Source of the DNA: Escherichia coli 042 | GTDB lineage: Bacteria > Pseudomonadota > Gammaproteobacteria > Enterobacterales > Enterobacteriaceae | Assembly: GCF_000027125.1 (NCBI RefSeq) | Contig: NC_017626.1 | Length of the DNA stretch: 64,000 nucleotides | Strand: one strand, 5' to 3' | Made by a program: the position numbers and the translations under genes | In this document: piece after piece, positions 3,823-46,020 of the stretch | How the letters are laid out: every line of letters begins with the position of its first letter | How positions within the stretch are numbered: position 1 is the first letter of the stretch | Notes under the pieces: generated by a model | Database searches by the model: none | Seen by the model: the letters and a program-made list of their open reading frames with translations, nothing else | Told to the model about the DNA's origin: nothing

Positions 3823-4473
3823 ATGAATGAAAATCAGTTAGCTCCTTGTTGGGAATTTCAACCTTATCTTGCTGAAAACTATGTTCGCCACTTGTTGGCG
3901 GAGATCGCTAACGTACTTGAGCAGCTGTACTATCATAAGCACGCATTAGACAGCAACTGGTCTGAAGGTGTAAGGGCTTATGATTGGGTCAGAAATCATC
4001 TTATTCAAAATGAAGATGCAATTCCTGGCCTTGAGATGATTTCCAAGGGGTTGGACTATGTAGTTGCTTTAAATAAAGTTCCGCTACAATTTACCAAAGA
4101 TTGCATTAATAACCCCAAAAAGAAACATCGTCTGCGTCGAAATAAAGTAGAGTATGAGCAGCTCTCATTGTTTGGTGATGTTGAGGCTGAGCAAGATATT
4201 ACATGGCGAGTCATAGCTGAGCCTTTTTTATCCGAAGAGGGCGATGGTGAATTAGAGTCCACACTGCCTCGTTGGGAGGTAGCTCTTGTTGGATTTAATA
4301 CTTATGGTGCTCAGATTAGTATAGTTTCTCATCAATCTACAGCATCGATGCCGCTTATGCCTCTTGATTATAACACACTCCCTGACGAAGCGGAGATTAA
4401 TAAGGTGCCTCTTCGTCGGCGTACGAAGGATAAAGATTTGGATGTGAGCAGTGATGGAACATCAGGTGAATAA
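3823..4473 (+). CDS. Unknown 216-aa protein, upstream partner of HTH-peptidase (candidate toxin/effector)
   Basis: AT-rich ORF after TTGACA-containing promoter-like region; overlaps downstream gene by 23 nt; no family recognised by eye. Confidence 0.6.
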   Translation: MNENQLAPCWEFQPYLAENYVRHLLAEIANVLEQLYYHKHALDSNWSEGVRAYDWVRNHLIQNEDAIPGLEMISKGLDYVVALNKVPLQFTKDCINNPKKKHRLRRNKVEYEQLSLFGDVEAEQDITWRVIAEPFLSEEGDGELESTLPRWEVALVGFNTYGAQISIVSHQSTASMPLMPLDYNTLPDEAEINKVPLRRRTKDKDLDVSSDGTSGE

Positions 4474-5557
4474 CTTCACTGAGTATCGGGGTGATAAGCT
4501 CAAACTAGCGAGAATGGCTGTTGGGCTTTCTTGTGAAGAGTTAGCCGAAAAAATTGGCAAGACAAAGCAATTCGTTAGCAAACTGGAGAAGGGGTGCAGG
4601 CCATCGGAGCAATGTCTTGAGTTAATATCTTCAGCGCTTATGATTAAGTCCAGTTTTCTTTTTACTGAACGAAAATACGCTCTGGAAAGTGATGTCTGCC
4701 ATTTTCGGAGTAAGAAGTCCAGGACTCAAACGCTGACTAATAGTGTATTGGCCAGGGCTGAGATTCTTAATATTATAATTTCTGCTGTTGAAGGTGAAAT
4801 CGAATTTCCTGACGTTAACATACCGGAGCACCCAGGGGCTGAATTACTTACTCCGAATGATATTGAGCGAGTGGCAGAAGATTGTCGCCGTGCCTGGAAT
4901 TTAGGTCTTGGCCCTATATCATCAATGGTTAAATTGGCGGAGAGTTTAGGGGTAATCGTTGCGCATGTTACGGGAGTCGATGATCGTGTTGATGCTTTTA
5001 CTGTTCACAATAACAGGCCTGTTATCATCAGGAACAATGTTAAAAAAAGCATATGTAGATTTCGCTCTGATTTAGGTCATGAATTAGGGCATTTAGTAAT
5101 GCATGAGGGCATAACGACAGGTGATAAACTTACGGAATCACAAGCCGATCACTTTTCGAGCGCCTTATTAGTTCCCAGGTTATCTTTCATTAAAGAATTT
5201 CCACGAATACGAGGTAAGCAATTCGACTGGAATGCTCTGGTTGAATTTAAACTTAGATGGAAAATCAGCCTTAAAATGTGTATTTATCGAGCCAGCGCAT
5301 TAGGCTTATTGACCCAGGAACAGGCAAGAACTGGCTATATGCATCTTAATTCCAGAGGGTATACGAGAGTTGAACCTGGTGATGAACTTTTGCGCCCTGA
5401 AGAACCCGGCATGCTGGCCGAGGCGATTGAAATGCTGGATGATGCAACCTGGCTAAGAATTCTTATGAAAACTGGCTTGAGCCAAGATTTAATTCGTGAG
5501 TTGTTCTCCATCAACAGACCTATTACAAATCCAAGAAATATTTTCCAGATTGTTTGA
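4451..5557 (+). CDS. XRE-family HTH fused to ImmA/IrrE-type (HEXXH) zinc metallopeptidase
   Basis: N-terminal HTH (LARMAVGLSCEELAEKIGKTKQFVSKLEKG); C-terminal HELGHLVMHE motif typical of ImmA/IrrE (COG2856/M78-like) peptidases. Confidence 0.7.
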   Translation: MMEHQVNNFTEYRGDKLKLARMAVGLSCEELAEKIGKTKQFVSKLEKGCRPSEQCLELISSALMIKSSFLFTERKYALESDVCHFRSKKSRTQTLTNSVLARAEILNIIISAVEGEIEFPDVNIPEHPGAELLTPNDIERVAEDCRRAWNLGLGPISSMVKLAESLGVIVAHVTGVDDRVDAFTVHNNRPVIIRNNVKKSICRFRSDLGHELGHLVMHEGITTGDKLTESQADHFSSALLVPRLSFIKEFPRIRGKQFDWNALVEFKLRWKISLKMCIYRASALGLLTQEQARTGYMHLNSRGYTRVEPGDELLRPEEPGMLAEAIEMLDDATWLRILMKTGLSQDLIRELFSINRPITNPRNIFQIV

Positions 5558-6221: not shown

Positions 6222-7268
6222 GTGCGGGTATTACTTCGACCTGTTCTGGTACCGGAACTCGGGCTGGTGATCGTTAAGCCGGGCCGTGAATCCATGCCGG
6301 TATTCCACAATACCCGGGTACTGGTGGAGCCGGAACCGAAAAGCATGCGTAATCTGCCGTCCGGGGTCGTTCCTGCCGTTCGCCAGCCGCTGGCGGAGGA
6401 TAAATCATTACTGCCATTTTTCAGCGACGAACGAGTGATTCGTGCTGCTGGTGGCGCTGGCGCATTGTCTGATTGGTTACTGCGCCATGTTAAATCCTGC
6501 CAGTGGCCACACGGCGATTATCACCACAGTGAAACCGTCATTCACCGTTATGGTACCGGCGCAATGGTGTTGTGCTGGCACTGCGACAACCAGCTGCGCG
6601 ACCAGACCTCCGAATCACTCGGGCAACTTGCTCACCAAAACCTGTCTGCATGGATGATTGACGTCATACGCCATGCAATGAATGGCTCGCAGGAACGGGA
6701 ATTATCGCTGGCTGAATTATCCTGGTGGGCGGTCCGCAATCAGGTGGCGGACGCGCTACCGGAAGCGGTATTACGTCGTTCGCTGGGGTTGCGTGCGGAA
6801 AAAATCCGCTCAATGTACCGTGAAAGCGACATCGTACCGGGAGAGCAGACCGCCACCAGCATACTGAAGCAGCGCACAAAAAATCTTGCGCCGCTGCCTC
6901 ACGCCCACCAGCAAAACCCGCCACAGGAAGAGACGGTGGTCAGCATTGCCGTTGATCCTGAGTCTCCGGAATCTTTCATGAAACGACCTAAACGTCGCCG
7001 CTGGGTTAACGAGAAATACACACGCTGGGTGAAGACACAGCCGTGTGCGTGTTGTGGTAAGCCAGCCGACGATCCCCATCACCTGATTGGTCATGGTCAG
7101 GGCGGAATGGGGACAAAATCTCACGATATTTTCACGCTACCGCTGTGTCGGGAGCATCACAACGAGCTTCATGCGGATCCGCTGGCGTTCGAAGAAAAGC
7201 ATGGTTCTCAGGTTGATTTAATTTTTCGTTTTCTTGATCACGCCTTTGCAACTGGCGTGCTTGGGTAA
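6222..7268 (+). CDS. DUF968-family phage protein (YdfU-like)
   Basis: 348 aa; C-terminal Cys/His cluster CACCGK...HHLIGHGQGG...CREHHNELH recalled from YdfU-like prophage proteins; sits upstream of rusA/Q. Confidence 0.6.
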   Translation: MRVLLRPVLVPELGLVIVKPGRESMPVFHNTRVLVEPEPKSMRNLPSGVVPAVRQPLAEDKSLLPFFSDERVIRAAGGAGALSDWLLRHVKSCQWPHGDYHHSETVIHRYGTGAMVLCWHCDNQLRDQTSESLGQLAHQNLSAWMIDVIRHAMNGSQERELSLAELSWWAVRNQVADALPEAVLRRSLGLRAEKIRSMYRESDIVPGEQTATSILKQRTKNLAPLPHAHQQNPPQEETVVSIAVDPESPESFMKRPKRRRWVNEKYTRWVKTQPCACCGKPADDPHHLIGHGQGGMGTKSHDIFTLPLCREHHNELHADPLAFEEKHGSQVDLIFRFLDHAFATGVLG

Positions 7269-7280
7269 AAGAGGTGACTG

Positions 7281-7655
7281 ATGCTCATAGATTTGGTTTT
7301 ACCTTACCCGCCGACGGTGAACACTTACTGGCGACGCCGTGGCAGCACATATTTTATCTCGGAGGAGGGAAAGCGTTATCGCCGGGCTGTGGCGCTTATT
7401 GTTCGCCAGCAGCGGCTGAAATTAAGCCTGTCCGGAAGGCTGGCGATAAAGGTGATTGCAGAGCCACCGGATAAGCGTCGTCGCGACCTGGACAATATCC
7501 TGAAAGCACCGCTGGATGCGCTGACGCATGCGGGAGTGTTAATGGACGATGAGCAGTTTGATGAAATCAATATCGTTCGTGGTCAGCCAGTATCTGGTGG
7601 ACGTCTGGGGGTGAAGATTTACCCCATAATGCTTGAAGGGCAGGTCAAAAAATGA
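7281..7655 (+). CDS. rusA: Holliday junction resolvase RusA
   Basis: 124 aa; RRRDLDNILKAPLDAL matches the conserved RusA DxDN catalytic region. Confidence 0.85.
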   Translation: MLIDLVLPYPPTVNTYWRRRGSTYFISEEGKRYRRAVALIVRQQRLKLSLSGRLAIKVIAEPPDKRRRDLDNILKAPLDALTHAGVLMDDEQFDEINIVRGQPVSGGRLGVKIYPIMLEGQVKK

Positions 7656-8473
7656 AACTGGAAGATTTACCGAAATACTACTCCCCAAAATCCCCCGGCC
7701 TGACTGATGCATCGGCCTCAACGTCGAAAGATGCGCTGAGTATCACTGATGTGATGGCCGCGCAGGGCATGACACAGAATCGGGCTGAGATGGGGTTTTC
7801 TGCGTTCCTTGGGAAAATGGGCATTAGTATGAATGACAGAGAGCGGGCAACAGAATTGCTGACAGAATATGCACTCAGGCGGTGTGATCGCGTGGCGGCG
7901 TTAAGAAAACTCCCGGCAGAAATAAAACCGGCAGTGATGCGTATTATGGCTTCGTATGCGTTTGAAGATTATGCCCGTAGCGCGGCGAGCAAAAAACAGT
8001 GCTCCTGCTGTCACGGAAAAAAATTTATTGAAAGCGAGGTTTTTACAAACAAGATCCAGTATCCGGATGGTAAGCCGCCGGTATGGGCAAAGTGTACGAA
8101 AGGTGTGTATCCGTCTTACTGGGAAGAATGGAAAAAAGTCAGGGAGGTGGTAAAAGTTGCCTGTCCGGAGTGTGGCGGAAAGGGTGAGGTTTCCACCGCC
8201 TGTAAGGATTGCCGTGGGCGTGGTGTCGCCATTCATCGTGAAGAGTCGGTAAAACGTGGTATGCCTGTTATCAGAGACTGCCAGCGTTGTGGTGGTCGTG
8301 GCTGTGAAAGACTACCATCAACGGAGGCATTTAATGCCATATGCAAAGTGACGAGTGCTATCACGCTTGATACGTGGAAAAAATCAGTGAAACGCTTTTA
8401 CGATACGTTGGTGGTTCGGTTTGACATTGAAGAGGCATGGGCGGAGCGGCAGTTAAAGAGGGTAACGCGATAG
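7652..8473 (+). CDS. Late-gene antiterminator Q-like protein (QuuQ-type) with zinc fingers
   Basis: 273 aa with repeated CxxCxGxG motifs; follows rusA and precedes a terminator and the late region. Confidence 0.6.
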   Translation: MKLEDLPKYYSPKSPGLTDASASTSKDALSITDVMAAQGMTQNRAEMGFSAFLGKMGISMNDRERATELLTEYALRRCDRVAALRKLPAEIKPAVMRIMASYAFEDYARSAASKKQCSCCHGKKFIESEVFTNKIQYPDGKPPVWAKCTKGVYPSYWEEWKKVREVVKVACPECGGKGEVSTACKDCRGRGVAIHREESVKRGMPVIRDCQRCGGRGCERLPSTEAFNAICKVTSAITLDTWKKSVKRFYDTLVVRFDIEEAWAERQLKRVTR

Positions 8474-8555
8474 TGTTGTTGATTTTTCCCGAATCTGTGG
8501 TAAATTTGCTCTAACGATGGGCGTTTTATGCCTGACGTTAGAAGATTTTTTACAC

Positions 8556-8577
8556 CCCGCCGCCTGGCGGGTTTTTT
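8556..8577 (+). terminator. Rho-independent terminator, probably tR' of the late promoter region
   Basis: cccgcc gcct ggcggg hairpin followed by TTTTTT just downstream of Q. Confidence 0.5.
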
Positions 8578-8699
8578 ATGACTGAAATCGCGTCAGTACA
8601 GTAAACGCGCTGGTGGCGGTGAATACCTGTCTTTCAGCTTGCTGGCTTTTTCGACAAGAGTTATTGGTGTGTCACGTTAACCGGGAAAGGGAAAAAGAC

Positions 8700-8897
8700 A
8701 TGCTAAAACAGCAGGATATGACAGAAACCGCCAGAGTAGTGTTTAATGAATTAAGCGTTACCGAACCGGCGACAGTCGGGGAGATAGCGCAGAATACTTA
8801 CCTTTCACGCGAACGCTGCCAGTTAATACTGACCCAGCTGGTTATGGCGGGTCTGGCAGACTATCAGTTCGGTTGTTACAGACGCCTTCCGCAGTGA
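8700..8897 (+). CDS. Hypothetical small protein, possibly winged-helix
   Basis: ATG at 8700 within ORF 8613..8897. Confidence 0.35.
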   Translation: MLKQQDMTETARVVFNELSVTEPATVGEIAQNTYLSRERCQLILTQLVMAGLADYQFGCYRRLPQ

Positions 8898-9047
8898 AGG
8901 CTTTTTTATTTGTGGTAAATGGGCGGCTGGTGGGTGTTAGGGGCACCCACCAGCCATCTGCTCATGCGTTGGGTTCACAAGCAAACCTCAGGCCCACTGC
9001 TTTGCGCAAAAGCAGAATGAGCCTATCAGAGACAGGCTTAATGATCC

Positions 9048-10097
9048 ATGCTTAATACTGTAAAAATATCCAGTTGTGAGTTAATCAACGCCGACTGCCT
9101 GGAATTTATCCGGTCGTTACCCGAAAATTCTGTTGACCTGATAGTCACGGACCCGCCGTACTTTAAAGTGAAGCCTGAAGGCTGGGATAACCAGTGGAAG
9201 GGCGACGATGATTACCTGAAGTGGCTGGACCAGTGTCTGGCGCAGTTCTGGCGGGTGCTGAAACCTGCCGGAAGTCTTTACCTGTTCTGTGGTCATCGCC
9301 TGGCATCTGATATCGAAATCATGATGCGTGAACGCTTCAGTGTGCTGAACCATATTATCTGGGCGAAGCCGTCCGGACGCTGGAACGGATGCAACAAGGA
9401 AAGCCTGCGGGCGTATTTCCCCGCCACAGAGCGCATTCTGTTCGCGGAACATTATCAGGGGCCGTATCGTCCGAAAGATGCCGGGTATGCGGCGAAGGGC
9501 AGTGCACTGAAACAGCATGTGATGGCCCCGCTGATTTCTTACTTTCGTGATGCGCGCGCGGCCCTGGGGATAACGGCAAAACAGATTGCAGATGCCACAG
9601 GAAAGAAAAACATGGTGTCGCACTGGTTCAGTGCCAGTCAGTGGCAGCTACCGAACGAAAGCGATTATCTGAAATTACAGTCGCTGTTTGCCCGGGTGGC
9701 AGAAGAGAAACATCAGCGCGGTGAACTGGAAAAGCCCCACCACCAGCTGGTGGATACGTATACGTCACTGAACCGGCAGTATGTGGAGCTGCAGAGTGAA
9801 TATAAGCATCTGCGGCGGTATTTTGGTGTGACGGCGCAGGTGCCGTACACGGATGTGTGGACACATAAACCGGTGCAGTTCTATCCCGGGAAACATCCGT
9901 GCGAAAAACCGGCAGAAATGCTGCAGCAGATAATCAGCGCAAGCAGTCGTCCGGGTGACCTGGTTGCAGATTTTTTTATGGGCTCAGGTTCAACGGTAAA
10001 AGCGGCACTGGCGCTCGGGCGTCGTGCGATTGGCGTTGAACTGGAGACCGGACGTTTTGAGCAGACAGTCAGGGAAGTTCAGGATTTAATCGTTTGA
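9048..10097 (+). CDS. DNA N6-adenine/N4-cytosine methyltransferase (beta-class), no partner nuclease seen
   Basis: IVTDPPYF (motif IV) near the N-terminus and FMGSGST (motif I) near the C-terminus. Confidence 0.8.
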   Translation: MLNTVKISSCELINADCLEFIRSLPENSVDLIVTDPPYFKVKPEGWDNQWKGDDDYLKWLDQCLAQFWRVLKPAGSLYLFCGHRLASDIEIMMRERFSVLNHIIWAKPSGRWNGCNKESLRAYFPATERILFAEHYQGPYRPKDAGYAAKGSALKQHVMAPLISYFRDARAALGITAKQIADATGKKNMVSHWFSASQWQLPNESDYLKLQSLFARVAEEKHQRGELEKPHHQLVDTYTSLNRQYVELQSEYKHLRRYFGVTAQVPYTDVWTHKPVQFYPGKHPCEKPAEMLQQIISASSRPGDLVADFFMGSGSTVKAALALGRRAIGVELETGRFEQTVREVQDLIV

Positions 10098-10146
10098 AAC
10101 GGATGAGATTGCAGAATTAATTACGCACCATTATTATTCTGCTCCC

Positions 10147-10222
10147 GGCCCTTTAGCTCAGTGGTGAGAGCGAGCGACTCATAATCGCCAGGTCGCTGGT
10201 TCAAATCCAGCAAGGGCCACCA
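10147..10222 (+). tRNA. ileZ: tRNA with CAT anticodon, Ile2 (lysidine)-type or Met
   Basis: 76-nt cloverleaf: acceptor ggccctt/aagggcc, T-arm gctgg-ttcaaat-ccagc, anticodon loop ctCATaa, 3' CCA; close to recalled E. coli tRNA-Ile2. Confidence 0.85.
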
Positions 10223-10229
10223 TCACATA

Positions 10230-10306
10230 CCGCCATTAGCTCATCAGGAAAGAGCGCCAGCCTTCGAAGCTGGTTGCGCGGAGTTCGGGTCCCCGAAGGC
10301 GGTCCA
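10230..10306 (+). tRNA. tRNA-Arg (anticodon TCG as read)
   Basis: 77-nt cloverleaf: anticodon stem ccagc/gctgg with loop ctTCGaa, 3' CCA; one mismatch each in acceptor and T stems. Confidence 0.6.
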
Positions 10307-10319
10307 TTATCTGTATCCT

Positions 10320-10396
10320 GCGTTGTTAGCTCAGCCGGACAGAGCAATTGCCTTCTAAGCAATCGGTCACTGGTTCGAATCCAGTACAACGCGCCA
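10320..10396 (+). tRNA. tRNA-Arg (anticodon TCT)
   Basis: 77-nt cloverleaf: acceptor gcgttgt/acaacgc, T-arm actgg-ttcgaat-ccagt, anticodon loop ctTCTaa, 3' CCA. Confidence 0.85.
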
Positions 10397-10440
10397 CACT
10401 TATTTTCCCTGGCTCGCTTTTGCGGGCTTTTTTTTAAATG

Positions 10441-10656
10441 TCTCACAATTCAGGCGGTTGACTGTTGTCTGGTTTGCGGGGAGTTTGTTAAAAGAAACTG
10501 GCATGGTGAATCCCCCTGTGCGGAGGGGCAATCAGCGAGTAGGTATATGGGATAATCGCGGATTCAGGTGCTGGTACTGAATTCACCGGGAGGCACCCGG
10601 CACCATGCAATGGCACATAGCGCCACTCTCCAGCCCCTCTCCGGAGGGGCTTTTCT
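10441..10656 (+). repeat. Structured repeat unit 1 (sRNA-like: promoter-like box, hairpins, terminator)
   Basis: Shares with unit 2 the blocks tcacaattcag, ttgac, ttgttaaaa, gcatggtgaatccccctg.gcggagggg, gtataat/ggataat, caccgggaggcacccggcaccatg and terminator gcccctctccggaggggc+T-run. Confidence 0.55.
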
Positions 10657-10908
10657 GTGCCGGATACATCACAGTTTCTGGAACCTTAGGTACTACAGTA
10701 TCAGTCAGGGTGCTATATTTTCAGATGTGATGAAAGCCTGTCAGCAGGCAGGGCGTATCGGAAATGACCCAGTAGAGAAAACGTTGACTCAGATACCGGT
10801 GCTGAGTTACCGGGAAACCGGCATCACATGACCGCTATCCTTCCAGGCCCATCCGCTCCGGTGGGCCTTTTTACTGCAGAAAACAGGTTCCCCGTTAAAT
10901 GCTATGTT

Positions 10909-11141
10909 GCTCACAATTCAGTAAGTTGACAGTTGCCTGTCAGACTGGGCATTTGTTAAAAAAATTTCGCATGGTGAATCCCCCTGAGCGGAGGGGCGAC
11001 TGGTGACGGTATAATCTCTGATTATCAAAACGAGAATGACGCGGGTTTAGTGGCACCGGACTGAACTCACCGGGAGGCACCCGGCACCATGTGCATGATG
11101 ATACAGATACGCGGCTTTAGCCCCTCTCCGGAGGGGCTTTC
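10909..11141 (+). repeat. Structured repeat unit 2 (sRNA-like)
   Basis: Second diverged copy of the same ~220-bp unit, with a perfect TATAAT at 11010-11015. Confidence 0.55.
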
Positions 11142-11371
11142 TTATGGACAAAAAAAGCCCGCGCTGGGAGACGCGGGCGGCAAGGAATAAACAATAAAAC
11201 GTGAAGTAATATTTCAGCTGGCGAATAATACCCCATAGTAATCACTCTGCGCAACTGCGCGGTCTTTTTCGAATTGCGGGCTGTAGTCTCCCTTCTGCCA
11301 TTGTCCTGTAACTTCCGGACTTCAGCCTGCTCCTTATCTGACTCACAACATTATCCCGCCCGGGAGGATTC

Positions 11372-13225
11372 ATGGCATTTAAACACTATGACGTGGTCAG
11401 GGCGGCATCGCCGTCAGACCTTGCGAAACGACTGACACAAAAACTGAAGGAGGGCTGGCAGCCGTTTGGTAGTCCGGTGGCCATAACCCCTTATACCCTG
11501 ATGCAGGCGATTGCAGCAGAAGGTGATGTGGTCGTCAGTGGTGCAACTGAGCCGGAGTGGTACTACGTCATCGTACTGGCCGGGCAATCCAATGCCATGG
11601 CTTACGGTGAAGGGCTTCCGCTTCCGGATTCATACGATGCGCCCCATCCGCGCATTAAGCAACTGGCCCGTCGTAACACAGTGACTCCCGGTGGTGAAGT
11701 ATGCGTATTTAACGACATCATTCCTGCTGACCATTGTCTGCATGATGTTCAGGATATGAGTACGATTAACCATCCCCGGGCTGACCTGAGCAAAGGGCAG
11801 TACGGCTGTGTCGGACAGGGCTTACATATTGCCAAAAAACTGCTTCCGTATATCCCTAATAATGCGGGGATCCTGCTGGTACCATGCTGTCGTGGTGGTT
11901 CGGCATTCACCCAGGGCACGGAGGGGACATTCAGCGAGTCCACGGGAGCCAGTCAGGATTCGGCTCGCTGGGGAGTGGGTAAGCCGTTATATCAGGATCT
12001 GCTTTTCCGCACGAAGGCAGCATTGCAGAAAAACCCGAAAAACGTTTTGCTGGCGATATGCTGGATGCAGGGGGAATTCGATATGACGAATGCCAGTTAC
12101 GCCCAGCAGCCAGCAGCATTTCTTGCAATGGTACAGCAGTTCCGTGCTGACCTTGCCGGGCTGGCAGCGCAGTGTCACGGTGGAAGTCCGGCATCAGTCC
12201 CCTGGATTTGTGGCGACACGACATACGCGTGGAAACAAGAACACGGTACGCAATATGAAGTGGTATATGGTGCATATAAAGGTAAAGAATCCCAGCAGAT
12301 TTATTTTGTTCCCTTTATGACCGATGGTAGCGGAGTTAATACACCGACAAACAACCCGTCAGAAGATCCTGATATTGCCGGGTCTGGTTATTACGGTTCG
12401 GCATCCCGAACGAACAAAAACTGGGTATCATCAAATCGCCCGACGCATTTCAGCTCATGGGCGCGTCGTGGCATTATTCCCGATCGTATGGCAACTGCTA
12501 TTCTGAACGTAGCCGGTCGCACCTTAGCCTTCATTAGTGGTAAGGCACCGGAAATCAAACCCTCGCCCGGCGGCGACACGCCATTGGGGCCGTCTGAAGA
12601 TGCATCCATACGCACAATCTCCCTGTTGCCGACAGCCGGAGACGCTGCTGCGCAGGGCTGGAGCATTAAGAATGGCGGAATTCAGTTGTCAGATGGTGTA
12701 TTTAAGATCACCAAGCAGAGCAATAAAGCCTGGTCCCTGACGCGCCCGGTGGATGACGCAGTCTCCCTGCTGACACGGGGTGGCAGACTGAGCTGTAAGT
12801 TTCGACTGTCAGGCGCACTGACCAACAATCAGTTCGGTCTGGGAATTTATCTGTATACCGATGTAGCGTTACCTGACGTCGTGGCGATGACCGGGACTGG
12901 TAACCCGTTCCTGATGTCGTTCTTCACCCAGACCACAGACGGCAAACTGAATCTGATGCATCACAAGAAAGCAGGAAACACAAAGTTGGGCGAGTTCGGG
13001 AATTACAGTAACGACTGGCAGACGCTGGAGCTGGTGTTCACCGCCGGCAGTGCCACGGTTACTCCGAAACTGAATGGAGTGGCTGGCCCGGCATTCCAGG
13101 TCATAAAAGACAGTCTGACACTGGGGCTGAATGCGCTGACGCTGACGGATATTACCAAAAATGCAGCGTATGGCGTTGAGATAGAAAGTCTGGTGCTGGA
13201 GATAAATGCACCGGCATCATCATAA
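11372..13225 (+). CDS. Phage NanS-p-like sialate O-acetylesterase (DUF1737 + SGNH hydrolase)
   Basis: 617 aa; N-terminal MAFKHYDVV... and GQSNAMAYGEG esterase motif; occupies the post-tRNA position before the lysis genes. Confidence 0.75.
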   Translation: MAFKHYDVVRAASPSDLAKRLTQKLKEGWQPFGSPVAITPYTLMQAIAAEGDVVVSGATEPEWYYVIVLAGQSNAMAYGEGLPLPDSYDAPHPRIKQLARRNTVTPGGEVCVFNDIIPADHCLHDVQDMSTINHPRADLSKGQYGCVGQGLHIAKKLLPYIPNNAGILLVPCCRGGSAFTQGTEGTFSESTGASQDSARWGVGKPLYQDLLFRTKAALQKNPKNVLLAICWMQGEFDMTNASYAQQPAAFLAMVQQFRADLAGLAAQCHGGSPASVPWICGDTTYAWKQEHGTQYEVVYGAYKGKESQQIYFVPFMTDGSGVNTPTNNPSEDPDIAGSGYYGSASRTNKNWVSSNRPTHFSSWARRGIIPDRMATAILNVAGRTLAFISGKAPEIKPSPGGDTPLGPSEDASIRTISLLPTAGDAAAQGWSIKNGGIQLSDGVFKITKQSNKAWSLTRPVDDAVSLLTRGGRLSCKFRLSGALTNNQFGLGIYLYTDVALPDVVAMTGTGNPFLMSFFTQTTDGKLNLMHHKKAGNTKLGEFGNYSNDWQTLELVFTAGSATVTPKLNGVAGPAFQVIKDSLTLGLNALTLTDITKNAAYGVEIESLVLEINAPASS

Positions 13226-13375
13226 AAAGTGAGCCAGCCAAATGGAAGGTATCGTTAAACTCACCGGTAGTGTCAGTGGGTCGTCTGAGATGCCTGCATG
13301 AGTTATCAGAGCCATCAGTACTTAACTGGTGGCTTTTTTTATTGTTGTCAGCTTCCGGATAACGGGAGACGGGGT

Positions 13376-13591
13376 ATGTACCAGATGGAAAAAATCACAA
13401 CAGGTGTGTCATACACCACGTCAGCGGTGGGAACGGGCTACTGGTTCCTGCAGTTGCTGGACAGGGTTTCCCCGTCTCAGTGGGCGGCAATAGGCGTGCT
13501 GGGGAGTCTGCTGTTTGGGCTGCTGACATATCTGACTAACCTGTATTTCAAAATCAGAGAGGACCGTCGTAAGGCTGCACGGGGAGAGTAA
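13376..13591 (+). CDS. Holin, S21-type pinholin with dual start
   Basis: 71 aa [10 protein letters not shown]...[24 protein letters not shown]...[13 protein letters not shown] matches recalled phage 21 S; two in-frame Met (M1, M4) as in antiholin/holin pairs. Confidence 0.85.
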
Positions 13592-13595
13592 TTCA

Positions 13596-13911
13596 ATGAC
13601 TCAAAACTATGAACTGATTGTGAAAGGGATCCGCAATTTTGAGAATAAAGTTACGGTAACTTTAGCGTTACGGGACAAAAAAACGCTTTGACGGTGAAAT
13701 TTTTGACCTGGACATCTCGCTGGACCGTGTTGAAGGTGCCGCGCTGGAGTTTTATGAGGCAGCAGCCAGAAGGAGCATCAGACAGGTCTTCCTGGATGTT
13801 GCTGCCGGGTTATGTGAAGGGGACGAGCTGTTGCCAGAAACGCGCCCCTGTTCAGAGGCGCGGTATACCATAAAAATTAACAGTTCTGATAACTCGATTA
13901 CGGGTTGTTAG
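13596..13911 (+). pseudogene. ydfR-like small gene split by a frameshift at an A7 run
   Basis: ATG 13596 reads 31 codons to TGA at 13689-13691; the +1 frame continues open from 13684 to TAG 13909-13911 with no start codon; junction is the A7 tract 13677-13683. Confidence 0.5.
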
Positions 13912-13966
13912 CTTTTTGCAGTTGGCTTTCCAGTATCTTTCATTGGTAGCATCCTGATAAATATCC

Positions 13967-14500
13967 ATGAGCGCAAAAATCAAATACGGCCTGTCAGCTG
14001 CTGTTCTGGCGCTGATTGCTGCAGGCGCGTCTGCTCCTCAGATACTTGACCAGTTTCTGGACGAAAAAGAGGGTAACCACACAACGGCATACCGCGATGG
14101 TTCCGGCATCTGGACCATCTGTCGGGGGGCCACGATGGTGGATGGAAAACCCGTTTTTCCCGGTATGAAACTGTCGAAGGAAAAATGCGACCAGGTCAAC
14201 GCCATTGAGCGTGATAAGGCGCTGGCATGGGTGGAGAAAAACATCAAAGTGCCATTGAGCGAACCCCAGAAAGCGGGGATCGCGTCATTCTGTCCGTACA
14301 ACATTGGTCCCGGTAAGTGTTTCCCGTCGACGTTTTATAAACGAATTAATGCAGGTGATCGCAGGGGAGCGTGTGAGGCGATTCGCTGGTGGATTAAGGA
14401 CGGTGGCAGAGACTGCCGTATTCGTTCAAACAACTGCTACGGTCAGGTATCCCGTCGTGACCAGGAGAGCGCGCTGGCGTGCTGGGGTATCGACAGATAA
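13967..14500 (+). CDS. SAR endolysin (phage lysozyme, R21-like)
   Basis: 177 aa; N-terminal signal-anchor LSAAVLALIAAGASAP followed by lysozyme fold, T4-lysozyme-like (GH24) family as recalled for R21. Confidence 0.85.
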   Translation: MSAKIKYGLSAAVLALIAAGASAPQILDQFLDEKEGNHTTAYRDGSGIWTICRGATMVDGKPVFPGMKLSKEKCDQVNAIERDKALAWVEKNIKVPLSEPQKAGIASFCPYNIGPGKCFPSTFYKRINAGDRRGACEAIRWWIKDGGRDCRIRSNNCYGQVSRRDQESALACWGIDR

Positions 14501-40554: not shown

Positions 40555-41223
40555 CTATTTTTTCCCTGAAGCGGAAAACATTACTACAGTACCTTGAACC
40601 TTGGTTTTAACATTCTCGAAATGCTCTGAGAGTATATGTGTTAAGCCTTCTTCGGAATCTTTTGTGTTTGAAAAGATGCCTTTCTGATTGTAAATGCGCA
40701 TCAGTTTTTGACCGAAGCTATTGTGCACAACTCCATCGCCAAGAATTGTGGCTCCGTATAGAGTTCCATCGTCAGTTAAGGCCTGCGCCGCATTGCGTAT
40801 TACACAGCTTTTTGTAGATATATTTCCAGGCAGGCAGTGAAGAAGGTAAAACATGGAAATGGAATCAAATTGACCATGTAACGCCGCGGGATAAGGTTCA
40901 AAAACATCATGGCTAATTTTATGTTTAATTTTTGATTCCCCAGCCCTTGTAGATGCCGCGTTCAGGCTAGCTTCGTTCAAATCCATTAAAGATATCAGAC
41001 TACTCTCAGGTACGTGAGTAAGGTAAAACCCAGTTCCAACACCAATATCCAGATGGTTGTTACCTAAATGTTCCAGAAAGTGTGGAAGAAGGTGTTCCTT
41101 TGTAGGACATCCCCATGCAAGCCGATTTGATACTCCCAAAACCCACCAGTCATAAAGCTTTAGGGTAAGTGGTGTGTAAATTTTAGCCCCATCATCTGTG
41201 TTTTTTTTCATTAATTTCACCAT
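40555..41223 (-). CDS. Class I SAM-dependent methyltransferase (cargo gene)
   Basis: 222 aa, AT-rich, opposite strand; HLDIGVGTGF resembles the Rossmann motif I of SAM methyltransferases. Confidence 0.6.
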   Translation of the reverse strand: MVKLMKKNTDDGAKIYTPLTLKLYDWWVLGVSNRLAWGCPTKEHLLPHFLEHLGNNHLDIGVGTGFYLTHVPESSLISLMDLNEASLNAASTRAGESKIKHKISHDVFEPYPAALHGQFDSISMFYLLHCLPGNISTKSCVIRNAAQALTDDGTLYGATILGDGVVHNSFGQKLMRIYNQKGIFSNTKDSEEGLTHILSEHFENVKTKVQGTVVMFSASGKK

Positions 41224-41549: not shown

Positions 41550-42322
41550 TCATTGGGATTATGCCGCAGACACGTCGTATGCAGGAACGTGCTGCGGTTA
41601 GTTTGTGAGCTTTCGATAGTGGTTGTTATTTTTGCCCTTATTTGTTCCGGAGGCCATGGTTCAATGGTCCGTCTGCCCCCTGTGGTGATGTCAGCAAAAT
41701 CAGCCACTGCGCGAACCACAATAGCCCGGGAAGATGCTGAAGATCACCAGGTAAAGCTGTCAGCGCAGAAACTGGAAGAACTGCTCGCATCAATGGTTAA
41801 GGATGAGGTTGATCGCAATGATGGGATTTATTGACGTCAGCGAGAGCAGAAGGAAGAACTGAATAACCTGAATGATTTACGCTCAATCAGAGCGATGATG
41901 ATTGGCAGTAATTAGCGGTCAATTTCGGTTTTTTTGGCTGTGCGCTCCCCGCCCAGCATTGCGCGTCAATTAGCCCCAAAAAAACGAAAAAGTTACAATC
42001 AAGTAAAAAATTCCTTCTGCAAAACTAAAAAAGATTTCAATAAAATCAGACAGTTAAAAGCATAAAAAAAGGTACAAAAAAAACATCTCAAAGTCTTGTT
42101 TTTTGCTTCAAATACAATTGGTTATTGTGTTTTTTGAAACCTACCAGTCTGGTACATGGATATCGATACCACCGCCAATTATAAGCTGGGCGGTGCACAG
42201 CAACACGATAGCGTACGCCTCGATCCGTGGGTGTTTATGTTCTCAGCAGGATATCGTTTTTAATTCCGCACAAAAACGACCCCGTAATATACGGGGTCAA
42301 TAAGGACATGGTATAAAGGGTA

Positions 42323-42829
42323 TTATTTCTTCGCTTCTACGCCATCAGTTTCAGAGCGAATTAAAAATTTCTCAGTTGTTTGCGGAATATGCTGAATCAG
42401 CCAGTCGGCCATTTCTTTTTCCTCATTTAAAATCGCTTCGATGGTTGGAATTGAAGCTGTATCACCGGCATTTTTTGCTGCTGCTAATAGTGAGGTGTAA
42501 CAGGCGATTTCAAATTGCTCGAAGACATATCCGCTAATAGAGCCTTTGACTATTTCATCAGAAGGGAATATACCACCGATTGACTGCCCAAGCGCAGCCA
42601 TTTTACTCATGGAATCTTTAATGACTGAACGTGAAATGTCATTACGATCAAGAATAGTTTCCAGTTGAACAATCTGGTTTTTGGTTTCACTAAGATGTTG
42701 TTCAATACGAGCGCGTAGTTCAGGATAATTATCTATACGACTAGCCATGGATTCAAGCATAGATTCGGCTTGCTTTTCCATTGCGTGGGCGTCACGTAAC
42801 CAGTCATGATAATGTTCAATACGATTCAT
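42323..42829 (-). CDS. yciE: YciE (ferritin-like, DUF892)
   Basis: 168 aa; recalled as E. coli YciE by sequence and position next to yciF. Confidence 0.85.
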   Translation of the reverse strand: MNRIEHYHDWLRDAHAMEKQAESMLESMASRIDNYPELRARIEQHLSETKNQIVQLETILDRNDISRSVIKDSMSKMAALGQSIGGIFPSDEIVKGSISGYVFEQFEIACYTSLLAAAKNAGDTASIPTIEAILNEEKEMADWLIQHIPQTTEKFLIRSETDGVEAKK

Positions 42830-42874
42830 GAAAATGTCCTCTTTATAAAATGACTAAAAGTTAAAGTTCATATT

Positions 42875-43375
42875 TCAGGCTTTATTTTCGGCTTTCTTAT
42901 TTACGTTATTAAGTGCCAGATCAGTCAGTTTGATGTCGGTGGCCTTTTCTTCTTCCAGGGTTTCTTTCAGAAGCTTCGCTGCTTTACGATAACCTAATTG
43001 TTCAGCCAGCGTTGCTAAGGTCCCGTAACTGGCGATCTCATAGTGCTCGACCTTCTGTGCAGCGGCAATCAGTGCGGCATCACGCACTTCGTTTTTCTCG
43101 GTGCTTTCGATGACCTCATTAGCTTCATCAATTAGACCTTCCATTGCCACACATTTCATGCGCTTAATTTTCAGGTTCGATTCGGACTCCACAACTTGAT
43201 CAATACGTTCAATCTGTCCATGAGTTTCCTCGAGGTGCGCATGAAAAGCCTGACTTAATTTTTCGTTTGATGTTGCTCTTGCGAGTTTTGCCAGTGCCCG
43301 GGTTAATTGTTTTTCTGCGCTGTAGGTATCTGAAAGCAGGTGAATAAATACATCTTCAATGGTCTTCATATTCAT
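42875..43375 (-). CDS. yciF: YciF (DUF892 stress protein)
   Basis: Start taken at MNMKTIEDVF... inside ORF 42875..43423. Confidence 0.85.
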   Translation of the reverse strand: MNMKTIEDVFIHLLSDTYSAEKQLTRALAKLARATSNEKLSQAFHAHLEETHGQIERIDQVVESESNLKIKRMKCVAMEGLIDEANEVIESTEKNEVRDAALIAAAQKVEHYEIASYGTLATLAEQLGYRKAAKLLKETLEEEKATDIKLTDLALNNVNKKAENKA

Positions 43376-43460
43376 ATTTTTCTCCAGTGAAATCACTGCG
43401 AGCCATACGGCCCGCAGATGCAATTATCTTTATCAGCTGATATTAATAATTAACGGTGAA

Positions 43461-43640
43461 TCAGGATTTGCCTGATTTATTACCACCGCTTTGTTGACCG
43501 CCTTTTTTACCCGCTTCAGATGCGCGTTGCGGATCATTTTTAAAATTACCGCCGCTATGCTGACCGCCTTTACGGCCAGCGTCGGATGCCTTTTCACGGT
43601 CTTCGGCGAAATTTCCTGAACCACCACGATGTTCGGCCAT
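43461..43640 (-). CDS. yciG: YciG (KGG-repeat stress protein)
   Basis: Start taken at MAEHRGGSGNF...; KGG repeats. Confidence 0.8.
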   Translation of the reverse strand: MAEHRGGSGNFAEDREKASDAGRKGGQHSGGNFKNDPQRASEAGKKGGQQSGGNKSGKS

Positions 43641-44020
43641 GTTATTTCTCCCGTTGCGTTGCATTGTTTCATTAATATGAGTGTTGTGTGTCGACACTCA
43701 TTAAAATTAGTCGCTAATGAAAATTAGTCAAATTAAGCGCAACGAGAAGAAAGAGGGAAAATATATTATGAGGAACATTCTGGATATATTAACAATTGCC
43801 TGAGGAATAAGTGACTTAGAGAAAATTATTTATTTTACTGGTGTTATGTTGCGGGATTAATTTGTTTGATTATATTACTGTTGGGCGGAAAAAAGACGTA
43901 AGTTGACGTTCGACAGGGGTAAGCGAAACGGTAAAAAGATAAATAATAAATGAATTTAGGATTTTTCCAGCTTCGTTAAAGAAAGTTAAAATGCCGCCAG
44001 CGGAACTGGCGGCTGTGGGA

Positions 44021-44827
44021 TTAACTGCGCGTCGCCGCTTTCATCGGTTGTACAAAAGCTTTCAGTGCCGCCAGCATTTTCTCTGGCTCATTAATATGTT
44101 GCTCGATGATTTTAACGATGGCCGAACCAGAAATCGCGCCCGCAGCTCCTGCATCAATCGCTGCTTTTACCTGATCCGGGGCGGAAATACCAAAGCCCTG
44201 CAATGGAGGCGCAGCATTGTATTCTTTCAGCTTCGTGACCAGATGATTGAGGGGTAACGCGGCGCGGTTTTCTGCGCCGGTCACGCCCGCACGTGACAAT
44301 AAATAGGTGTATCCACGACCGTAGGAGGCTATCTGGCGCAGCAAATCATCGTCGGCATTCGGCGGGCAAATAAAGATAGGTGCGACATTATGACGCAACG
44401 CGGCCTGGCGGAAGGGAGCGGACTCTTCCACTGGCACATCGGCAACCAGCACCGAATCGACGCCGACTTTCTCGCACTGGGCATAAAACTCATCAATGCC
44501 TTTGTTAAACACCAGGTTGGCATACATCAAAAGGCCGATGGGAATGGTCGGGTGCTTCTGGCGAATCAGTGCCAGCATCTCAAAGCACTGTGCCGGGGTC
44601 ACACCTGCCGCAAAGGCACGCAGTGTGGCGTTTTGAATCGTCGGGCCATCCGCCAGTGGGTCGGAGAAGGGGATACCTAACTCCAGCGCGTCAGCACCGG
44701 CTTCAATTAGCGTGTCGATAATTTTCAGCGACTGCTCAATGCCCGGATCACCGAGCGTGACGAAAGGAACGAATGCGCCTTCTTTGCGCTCCTTCAACTG
44801 GGCAAACAGAGATTCGTAGCGTTCCAT
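44021..44827 (-). CDS. trpA: Tryptophan synthase alpha subunit
   Basis: 268 aa [28 protein letters not shown]..., matches recalled E. coli TrpA. Confidence 0.97.
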
Positions 44828-46020
44828 CAGATTTCCCCTCGAGCTTTCAAAATATCGTGAACGGTGAAGATGTCTTTATCGCCGCGACCGGAAAGGTTAA
44901 CCACCAGTAGCTGCTCTTTTTCCGGGTTTTCGCGCATCATTTTCAGCGCATGGGCCAGGGCGTGGGAGGACTCCAGCGCCGGGATAATCCCTTCGTGCAG
45001 GCAGAGTGTTTTGAAGGCTTCCAGTGCTTCATCATCGGTAATTGACACATAATCAGCGCGCCCAGTGCTGTTGAGATACGCGTGTTGTGGGCCGACAGAC
45101 GGGAAATCCAGTCCGGCAGAAATGGAGTAAGATTCTTCAATCTGCCCGTCTTCGGTTTGCATCATCGGCGCTTTCATACCGAAATAGATGCCCACGCGAC
45201 CATGTTTTAACGGTGCGCCGTGCTCGCCGGTTTCGATACCGTGACCGCCAGGCTCCACACCAATCAGGCCGACGTCGGTTTCGTTGATGAAATCAGCAAA
45301 CATGCCGATGGCATTTGAACCGCCGCCAACACAAGCGATAACCGCATCCGGCAGGCGACCTTCTCTTTCCAGAATCTGTGCTTTGGTTTCTTCGCCAATC
45401 ATCCGCTGGAACTCACGGACAATGGTCGGATAAGGATGTGGGCCAGCTGCGGTGCCCAGCATATAGTGCGCGGTTTCATAACTGCCGGACCAGTCGCGCA
45501 GCGCCTCATTACAGGCATCTTTCAGCGTCGCGGAACCGCTATGCACCGGGATCACTTCCGCGCCCATTAAATGCATACGAAAAACGTTAGGCGACTGGCG
45601 TTCAACGTCTTTGGCACCCATATAAATACGGCATTTCAGGCCGAGCAGGGCGCTGGCAAGGGCCGACGCCACGCCATGCTGACCGGCACCGGTTTCGGCG
45701 ATGATTTCGGTTTTACCCATCCGCTTCGCCAGTAAAGCCTGACCGAGCACCTGGTTAGTTTTATGCGCGCCGCCGTGCAGCAAATCTTCGCGCTTGAGAT
45801 ACAGCGTGGTGTTAGTGCCAGCCGTGATGTTCTGGCATTTGGTGAGTGCGGTTGGACGCCCGGCATAGTTTTTCAGCAGGTCGTTGAACTGGGCCTGAAA
45901 TTCAGGATCTTTTTGCGCGCTGACAAAAGCTTCTTCCAGCTGGCGCAGAGCAGGCATCAGGATTTGTGGCACGTACATGCCGCCAAACTCACCAAAATAG
46001 GGGTTAAGTAATGTTGTCAT
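44827..46020 (-). CDS. trpB: Tryptophan synthase beta subunit
   Basis: 397 aa [21 protein letters not shown]..., overlaps the trpA start. Confidence 0.97.

Follow-up and report, generated by a model that had tools for sequence, protein, structure and literature searches.

M.EcoGII of Escherichia coli O104:H4 C227-11 (GenBank EGT69837.1; Murray et al. 2018) is a prophage-encoded beta-class DNA methyltransferase of 349 amino acid residues (aa), in which the catalytic motif DPPY is followed by the target-recognition domain and then by FxGxG (PMC5778455). M.EcoGI of the same strain is identical to M.EcoGII in 333/349 residues, i.e. the two enzymes are 16 residues apart (PMC5778455). The window analysed here, a stretch of 64,000 nucleotides (nt) from E. 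coli 042 (RefSeq contig NC_017626.1), includes at 9048..10097 a prophage gene for a methyltransferase of the same size, referred to below as the methylase, that is an allele of M.EcoGI/M.EcoGII. The probability that this allele specifies a non-specific N6-adenine methylase, which is silent in the lysogen, induced via the antiterminator Q and serves anti-restriction, is put at about 0.85. The present analysis shows the sequence identity, the motifs and the order of the genes, and also that promoter, terminators and leader have homologs elsewhere and are conserved.

In vitro, M.EcoGII methylates up to 99% of deoxyadenosine (dA) in any sequence context, also accepts single-stranded DNA (ssDNA), DNA:RNA hybrids and RNA as substrates, and renders the treated DNA resistant to many restriction enzymes (PMC5778455). 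Reconstructed ancestors that have many more differences from M.EcoGII than the window allele were still non-specific (PMC11551740), and M.EcoGI is cited as non-specific in PMC4659465 and in Table 3 of PMC6602927. Forced expression of M.EcoGII was deleterious, and its authors proposed that the enzyme is expressed at induction, overcoming host restriction (PMC5778455).

Further members of the family are prophage-borne. M.EcoMV of EC958 (ST131) is encoded by prophage Phi4 and is given in the literature as 99% identical or similar to M.EcoGI/M.EcoGII, and M.Eco95JB1I/II and M.Eco95NR1I/II of O111:H- E. coli that produce Shiga toxin (STEC) as ~92-94% identical or similar; these differ from the window methylase in host lineage and prophage. 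Non-induced cultures of C227-11 and 95JB1/95NR1 showed no methylation that could be ascribed to family homologs, none was ascribed to M.EcoMV, no methylation motif that the homologs could account for was detected in the O111 STEC (PMC6602927), and reverse transcription PCR (RT-PCR) indicated that M.EcoMV is transcriptionally inactive in culture (PMC4659465). Anti-restriction has been proposed as the role of M.EcoGI/M.EcoGII-type enzymes (PMC5778455; PMC12707154), which agrees with the anti-restriction function suggested for the window gene in an earlier reading of the sequence alone (the original prediction).

The methylase gene and its motifs are as follows.

9048..10097, + strand: methylase gene, predicted beta-class N6-adenine DNA methyltransferase of 349 aa, allele of M.EcoGI/M.EcoGII
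9150-9161 (aa 35-38), + strand: catalytic motif IV, DPPY, read from the translation
9975-9989 (aa 310-314), + strand: S-adenosylmethionine (AdoMet)-binding motif I, FMGSG (FxGxG), read from the translation

The open reading frame (ORF) is uninterrupted over its 349 codons, with the ATG being the earliest possible start codon in frame and TGA the stop codon. PF01555 (N6_N4_Mtase) was the sole Pfam family found in the protein (E 2.3e-44), and profile positions 1-219 of 221 are stretched across residues 29-340. Because the match is split in this way, the methylase contains a central insertion of ~90 residues, corresponding to the target-recognition domain. The occurrence of DPPY ahead of FMGSG, together with PF01555, therefore defines a beta-class amino-methyltransferase, as had been claimed in the original prediction. 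A Dam-type alpha-class enzyme, which needs FxGxG before DPPY and PF02086, was rejected, as the methylase shows the opposite order and PF01555 only. The protein also matches the PADLOC model MTase_II PDLC03265 (4e-167). Its NCBIfam scores are all well under the curated cut-offs (e.g. 72 vs 830 for CcrM), so that it is an equivalog neither of CcrM nor of the chromosomal PRK11524 methylase.

N4-cytosine methyltransferases have a motif IV of the SPP[YF] type. A beta-class enzyme of that specificity, such as M.PvuII, was considered and rejected, since motif IV of the methylase is DPPY and M.PvuII was the weakest among the matches with solved structures (E 2.6e-07). Hence, DPPY and the homology point to N6-adenine rather than N4-cytosine as the target, and of the earlier assignment, which had left both open, only the adenine half is retained. 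A sequence search of the PDB found no solved structure of the methylase family, and the best match was to distant beta-class enzymes (E 9e-26).

For comparison with M.EcoGII, a machine-read PDF copy of its sequence from the supplement of PMC11551740, which has reading errors, was used. The window protein aligned with it end to end, with shared N- and C-termini and identity in 331/348 aligned residues. Reading errors account for at least four mismatches, which are located at positions that are invariant among the homologs examined. The error-corrected identity is ~335/349, i.e. ~95-96%, which leaves ~14 real differences, at aa 148, 152, 164, 191, 236, 239, 240, 244, 246, 249, 254, 263, 278 and 321, mostly in the linker helix that follows the target-recognition domain. 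Thus, the window methylase is like M.EcoGII in its length of 349 aa, termini, motif order and prophage location, and differs from it in these ~14 substitutions. The exact M.EcoGII was not encoded at any locus examined, the best being 96.9% identical.

A closer relative was found in O104:H4, in which the copy is 348/349 identical to the window protein, the sole difference being A74 in the window vs V74. The O104:H4 methylase locus of 9 kb is 100% identical in C227-11 (NZ_CP011331.1, 2230080-2239129), and around the chromosomal copy of this strain (2233730-2235530) the order DUF968, RusA, Q, small ORF, methylase and tRNAs is as in the window. This copy differs from M.EcoGII by ~15 residues. As 16 differences were published for M.EcoGI and the strain has two family members, the C227-11 copy would be M.EcoGI, an assignment made by elimination rather than from a database label, and the window gene would then encode M.EcoGI with one substitution. 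The second paralog of C227-11 was not located in the search, which gave one place per record.

In phage records, a DNA search found the gene at 84-96% identity and labelled 'DNA methylase' in Stx2-converting phages, phiP27 and 1720a-02, the last of which has a methylase called 'very similar' to M.EcoGII (PMC5778455). The exact window protein is present on at least 1000 public contigs, and dN/dS between the window methylase and its homolog in phage 1720a-02 is 0.15; hence the methylase is more than a chance ORF. A homolog is present in 1977/5426 complete E. coli genomes, in up to six copies per genome. Motif order, high identity over the full length and location in a lambdoid prophage are all those of the M.EcoGI/M.EcoGII family. 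The methylase is therefore a member of an already known, characterised enzyme family, and the gene itself is not new. The term orphan, used for it in the original prediction, holds in that no restriction partner was found (see below) and fails in the sense of an uncharacterised orphan, since the alignment makes the gene an allele of M.EcoGI/M.EcoGII.

In some E. coli genomes the methylase gene is split by an insertion (NZ_CM144245.1, 3955985-3959439; NZ_CP103972.1; NZ_AP043639.1). The insert is an IS4-like IS421 element in two of these genomes, and RefSeq annotates two partial methylase coding sequences.

Upstream of the methylase lie the following features that are relevant to its transcription.

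7652..8473, + strand: Q antiterminator, presumed to activate the late transcription that runs through the methylase gene (PF03589, E 1.5e-49; RefSeq homolog 'antitermination protein')
8479..8518, + strand: pR'-like late promoter, in ungapped alignment with lambda at the pR'/6S RNA start; putative function by homology
8556..8577, + strand: tR'-like intrinsic terminator, a G+C hairpin (CCCGCC-GCCT-GGCGGG) followed by T6, with conserved counterparts in phage 1720a-02 and the O104:H4 copy
8884..8907, + strand: second terminator-like hairpin, which overlaps the small ORF at its stop codon; helix 1 of the leader alignment

In the pR'-like site, the -35 hexamer is TTGATT (8479-8484; TTGACT in lambda) and the -10 hexamer TAAATT (8501-8506) is the same as in lambda, and AACGAT at 8513-8518 is a match to the sigma-dependent pause element that lambda pR' has at the start of the 6S RNA. 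Compensatory changes were observed in 3/4 pairs of helix 1 (8884..8907). A generic scan of the + strand from 8300 to 11500 revealed no sigma-70-like promoter. A promoter of this type inside the leader was also considered and rejected, as the hexamers there, judged by eye only, are poor and the scan gave none. The position of the methylase downstream of Q and the pR'-like promoter in a prophage bears out its earlier placement in a phage late region.

The same arrangement recurs elsewhere, with exceptions at the position of Q. A homolog has Q on one side and the lysis genes, or else tRNAs and stx, on the other in nine other phages or prophages examined (1720a-02, phiP27, SfV, mEp460, Hafnia yong2, Eeyore, LLS, N15 and phiKO2). 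In phiP27 a GIY-YIG nuclease gene occupies the Q position upstream of the homolog, and in N15 and phiKO2 an annotated putative late promoter and terminator are found there.

It can be inferred from this organisation that the methylase is transcribed solely by Q-modified RNA polymerase at induction, and this would explain the published silence in lysogens. The two terminators, the lack of an own promoter and a weak ribosome-binding site form an architecture that appears consistent with silence of a toxic gene. The following course of events is proposed, in which the non-specific activity, lysogen silence and toxicity are taken from the published type enzymes, and the dependence on Q, the timing and selection for anti-restriction are inferred. 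The methylase, which comes second among the protein-coding genes in the late operon of the lambdoid prophage, would give an enzyme that takes the methyl group of AdoMet and places it on N6 of adenine with essentially no regard to sequence context. In the lysogen, pR'-like transcripts would end at the tR'-like terminator ~65 nt downstream, and the second hairpin, the structured leader and the weak ribosome-binding site would be extra barriers, so that the toxic enzyme is kept off. Upon induction, Q would modify RNA polymerase at pR', the terminators would be read through, and the methylase would be produced alongside the lysis and morphogenesis proteins. Replicating phage DNA would then be methylated at many adenines ahead of packaging, which in the next host would blunt those Type I, II and III restriction enzymes that N6-methyladenine (m6A) blocks.

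Several points weigh against this proposal. To our knowledge, an anti-restriction benefit has not been demonstrated using a phage mutant. The ~14 differences from M.EcoGII include three in the target-recognition domain (aa 164, 191 and 236), the comparison was made with a machine-read copy containing errors, and two hand-corrected M.EcoGII sequences were not found in the protein collection. The pR' assignment is by homology to lambda, and the site matches the sigma-70 consensus in only 8/12 positions; it falls under the threshold of the generic promoter scan. The non-specificity of M.EcoGI is known second-hand, through statements in citing papers (PMC4659465; PMC6602927). Lastly, transformation of E. 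coli drops by 4-5 orders of magnitude when the DNA has been heavily methylated by M.EcoGII (PMC5778455), and heavy methylation may therefore carry a cost.

The target under selection could instead be RNA or ssDNA, or the methylase could have a developmental role late in infection, such as shutdown of host replication or transcription or a packaging mark; this is considered improbable. M.EcoGII methylates ssDNA nearly as well as double-stranded DNA and methylates RNA too (PMC5778455), and ancestor-based engineering readily raises its RNA activity, but the rate with RNA is ~100-fold under that with DNA (V0 0.12 vs 11.12; PMC11551740). Also in favour of such a target or role, heavy methylation is toxic and stops plasmid establishment (PMC5778455). 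A different methyltransferase of Stx phages, M.EcoPA8orf6770P, acts on 16S rRNA with a small winged-helix partner (PMC10810198), and a small winged-helix gene is located immediately upstream of the window methylase too. However, the rRNA enzyme belongs to another family, having the MT-A70 fold with DPPW, is encoded at the other end of the prophage (gp5, near 3.3 kb of the phage sequence) and is active only with its small partner (PMC10810198), whereas M.EcoGII is fully active alone (PMC5778455) and the small ORF is tied to the window enzyme by gene position only. The 16S rRNA methyltransferase (M.EcoPA8orf6770P/PNB-2) was also rejected as the identity of the window methylase itself, which has DPPY and PF01555, gave no MT-A70 match and is located in the late region after Q.

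The original prediction had also offered an epigenetic methylase, i.e. a sequence-specific orphan of the Dam/CcrM kind that is active in the lysogen and regulates host or prophage genes. Orphan methyltransferases frequently have regulatory roles, RefSeq calls some homologs 'site-specific DNA-methyltransferase', and the methylase shows sub-threshold NCBIfam similarity to CcrM and to adenine methylases of the PRK11524 type. Nevertheless, the scores are far under the cut-offs, as given above for CcrM, and the protein is 99.7% identical to one enzyme of the C227-11 pair that is reported to be non-specific. Moreover, single-molecule real-time (SMRT) methylomes of strains bearing homologs have no extra motif, the RT-PCR in EC958 indicates no expression, and two terminators precede the gene, which lacks its own promoter. 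This function in the lysogen is thus very unlikely. For the same reason, the proposed comparison of the methylomes of the lysogen and a cured strain is expected to be negative, because the gene would be silent in the lysogen, and the methylome of an uninduced lysogen would not show the enzyme. The RefSeq labels mislead, since the type member of the family is non-specific.

The remaining alternatives relate to the prophage that surrounds the methylase gene, in which the following neighbours were recognised.

6222-7268: nin-region gene for a DUF968 protein with a weak (sub-threshold) HNH-like region
7281-7655: nin-region gene for RusA, of the Holliday-junction resolvase family
10147-10396: genes for tRNA-Ile(CAT), tRNA-Arg and tRNA-Arg, downstream of the methylase
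11372-13225: gene for a SASA-family esterase, followed by holin and lysozyme genes

The element is a lambdoid prophage without stx, inserted in ompW beside yciEFG-trpA, with a truncated ompW remnant next to yciE. It flanks the methylase with nin-region genes, Q, tRNAs and the holin, lysozyme, terminase, head and tail genes, and keeps complete lysis, head and tail modules. The succession of Q, methylase, tRNA-Ile/Arg/Arg, SASA/NanS-p-type esterase, holin and lysozyme is the late layout of Stx phages without the toxin genes; in phiP27, stx2e comes after the tRNAs, whereas in the window prophage toxin genes are absent. This layout and the insertion in ompW are seen at 7652-14500 and 42100-44900.

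That the methylase is the modification half of a restriction-modification system, the endonuclease gene of which was missed, is hardly credible. Genes with nuclease domains do lie 1.4-2.8 kb upstream, namely rusA (7281-7655) and the DUF968 gene with its HNH-like region (6222-7268), and both were examined as hidden partners and rejected as standard lambdoid nin-region genes without a PADLOC match to a restriction enzyme. RusA belongs to a family of Holliday-junction resolvases, and DUF968 is not a partner of the methylase because K-12 Qin has DUF968 beside Q in the absence of the methylase. Among the neighbours on both strands, searches with Pfam, PHROGs and PADLOC matched no restriction enzyme, and the ORFs overlapping or flanking the methylase on either strand gave no family match. 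The remaining prophage genes are annotated with lysis, head and tail functions, and homologs elsewhere are directly flanked by holin genes. The neighbours are thus the winged-helix ORF, Q, RusA, DUF968 and the tRNAs, and the adjacent cognate endonuclease that a Type II restriction-modification system would have is absent from them; this sustains the earlier claim that no endonuclease gene is adjacent, for which the finding of one would have been the refutation. In addition, a non-specific methylase would be senseless as a cognate partner.

A decaying, non-functional remnant can be dismissed with similar confidence: Murray et al. call the host element of M.EcoGII a cryptic prophage (PMC5778455) and some genomes hold interrupted or truncated copies, but here the frame and both motifs are intact, dN/dS is low and the exact sequence widespread as described above, the prophage modules are complete, and the near-identical M.EcoGII is highly active (PMC5778455).

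The preferred reading, a non-specific methylase made late against restriction, has parallels outside the family. Mom of phage Mu is likewise an adenine modification function of a temperate phage that is silent in the lysogen, toxic if made early and produced late against restriction (PMC12707154), as proposed here. Mom has an unrelated enzyme fold and chemistry and its modification is context-dependent, whereas the window methylase is a PF01555 protein of a family reported to be non-specific. M.EcoGIX and M.BceJIII are adenine methyltransferases of mobile elements with very relaxed specificity that are viewed as anti-restriction enzymes (PMC12707154); in contrast to the window methylase, they are plasmid-borne, ssDNA-specific with the motif SAY (PMC6602927, Table 3) and of a different family. 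Promiscuous adenine methylation is also common to alpha-class phage enzymes (Drozdz et al., as cited in PMC5778455), but these have the reversed order FxGxG, target-recognition domain, DPPY and are described there as less completely non-specific.

Between Q and the methylase, two further features accompany the gene.

8700..8897, + strand: gene for a 65-aa winged-helix protein, phrog_331 (E 1.4e-37), a conserved upstream neighbour of the methylase
8911..9047, + strand: putative structured leader, with a long stem-loop (8911-8979), a second domain (8991-9023) and then the start region with a weak Shine-Dalgarno sequence

The small ORF (phrog_331) was found in 55 phage records, and in every record that could be cross-checked 150-195 bp separate its end from the start of the methylase downstream. 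It is protein-coding, with MTETA and RCQLILTQLVMAGL conserved and the middle of the protein variable. An AlphaFold2 model (predicted local distance difference test score, pLDDT, 93) predicts a canonical winged helix-turn-helix. A Foldseek search of the PDB with this model gave only generic winged helices of MarR/IclR proteins and of methyltransferase N-termini (best E 1.2e-3), so that a function as an m6A reader like the winged-helix domain of DpnI is not supported. PADLOC gave no controller-protein match for the small protein.

The leader includes a hairpin, GGCTGGTGGGTG/CACCCACCAGCC, at 8925-8955 within the stem-loop 8911-8979. The spacer of ~150 nt is conserved above the neighbouring genes, with 77-81% mean column identity and long invariant blocks across phages with methylases 62-88% identical. 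Its predicted RNA fold gave z = -4.4 relative to shuffled sequence, and in the consensus structure 97% of cells are paired vs 30-41% with the partners slid. The pairs are mostly invariant, with double changes in 6/32; since conservation leaves so few of these, the data agree with the structure without proving it. Several pairs alternate between A-U and G-U, a pattern that fits the sense RNA rather than the opposite strand. The methylase ATG is not clearly covered by any predicted helix, and an Rfam search of the leader gave no family.

A scan of viral contigs seeded with the methylase protein gave only relatives with an identity of 95% or more, which are of no use for covariation, and diversity was supplied by a scan with the leader hairpin alone. 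The latter retrieved 80 loci, and a methylase homolog was located just downstream in 80/80, with its ATG 90-94 nt past the hairpin in 79/80; the 80th looks disrupted. The small ORF was upstream in 77/80. The co-occurrence of small ORF, leader and methylase is thus solid. The link of the small ORF to the methylase is frequent but not obligatory, because Eeyore and LLS have the methylase without the small ORF. In one viral contig (IMGVR_UViG_2873371114_000007), a 79-aa protein with three CxxC pairs replaces the winged-helix ORF upstream of the same leader and methylase. In the phiARM81ld record, a 'Com-like translational regulator' is annotated that overlaps the region matched by the methylase homolog.

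Since the small ORF, leader and methylase travel together, dedicated control is suggested. It is possible, if doubtful, that the methylase is the last part of a three-part cassette, with control by the small protein, the leader or both in addition to Q antitermination, and such control could act on timing, translation or targeting. In phage Mu, the small regulatory gene com precedes mom, the start region is structured, and a hairpin sequesters the start site of the modification gene; Com, encoded upstream, is a zinc-finger RNA-binding activator. Control similar to that of Com and Mom would be the most attractive reading of the cassette, by analogy, but the small ORF, unlike com, is predicted to encode a winged helix without a zinc finger. 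No description of the cassette was found in the literature searched, and it is the only part of the locus that may be new.

The linear plasmid-prophages N15 and phiKO2 provide a more distant comparison. Their methylases, both gp52, are 57-61% identical to that of the window and follow an annotated putative late promoter and terminator and precede the holin gene. In both, a 75-aa winged-helix protein, gp51, which is probably a distant relative of the small ORF, is encoded just upstream of the methylase; however, gp51 lies upstream of the putative late promoter, whereas the window small ORF lies downstream of its promoter.

M.EcoGII is a characterised enzyme that has recently been used as a chromatin-footprinting reagent, and homologs have already been catalogued in E. 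coli methylome papers. As about one third of complete E. coli genomes have one to six copies, departing lambdoid phages, including Stx phages, may carry broadly restriction-resistant DNA, and if so this bears on the spread of toxin genes. The cassette of small ORF and leader is a lead on how phages hold a dangerous enzyme off until lysis.

Several further observations were made in the window. In the leader hairpin, the Chi octamer GCTGGTGG is part of the invariant 5' arm (8926-8933, + strand), and the 3' arm gives Chi at 8947-8954 on the - strand. A palindromic double Chi, CCACCAGCTGGTGG, is located within the methylase gene at 9740-9753. The window has 20 Chi sites vs 2.5 expected from shuffles; E. 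coli DNA is generally rich in Chi, with ~14 per 64 kb.

The tRNA gene at 10147-10222 was called tRNA-Met (anticodon CAT) by ARAGORN vs tRNA-Ile by RefSeq for an identical gene; it is presumably the ileZ-type tRNA of Stx phages, which is read as Ile after lysidine modification. The gap between the tRNAs and the esterase gene, which is the stx site in Stx phages, is filled by three copies of the Rfam small RNA STnc100 at 10472-10662, 10701-10874 and 10940-11149 (165, 136 and 30 bits, i.e. two strong and one weak), each followed by a terminator-like hairpin.

In the nin region, the overlapping genes 3823-4473 and 4451-5557 match the RosmerTA defence toxin-antitoxin pair in PADLOC (RmrT, E 4.6e-25; RmrA, E 6e-105), and the RmrA protein has helix-turn-helix and peptidase M78/IrrE domains. 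Following the tail-fibre assembly gene at the prophage's right end, the - strand gene at 40555-41223, which has no bearing on the methylase, encodes a 222-aa 'class I SAM-dependent methyltransferase', a RefSeq label taken from a 99.8% identical genome.

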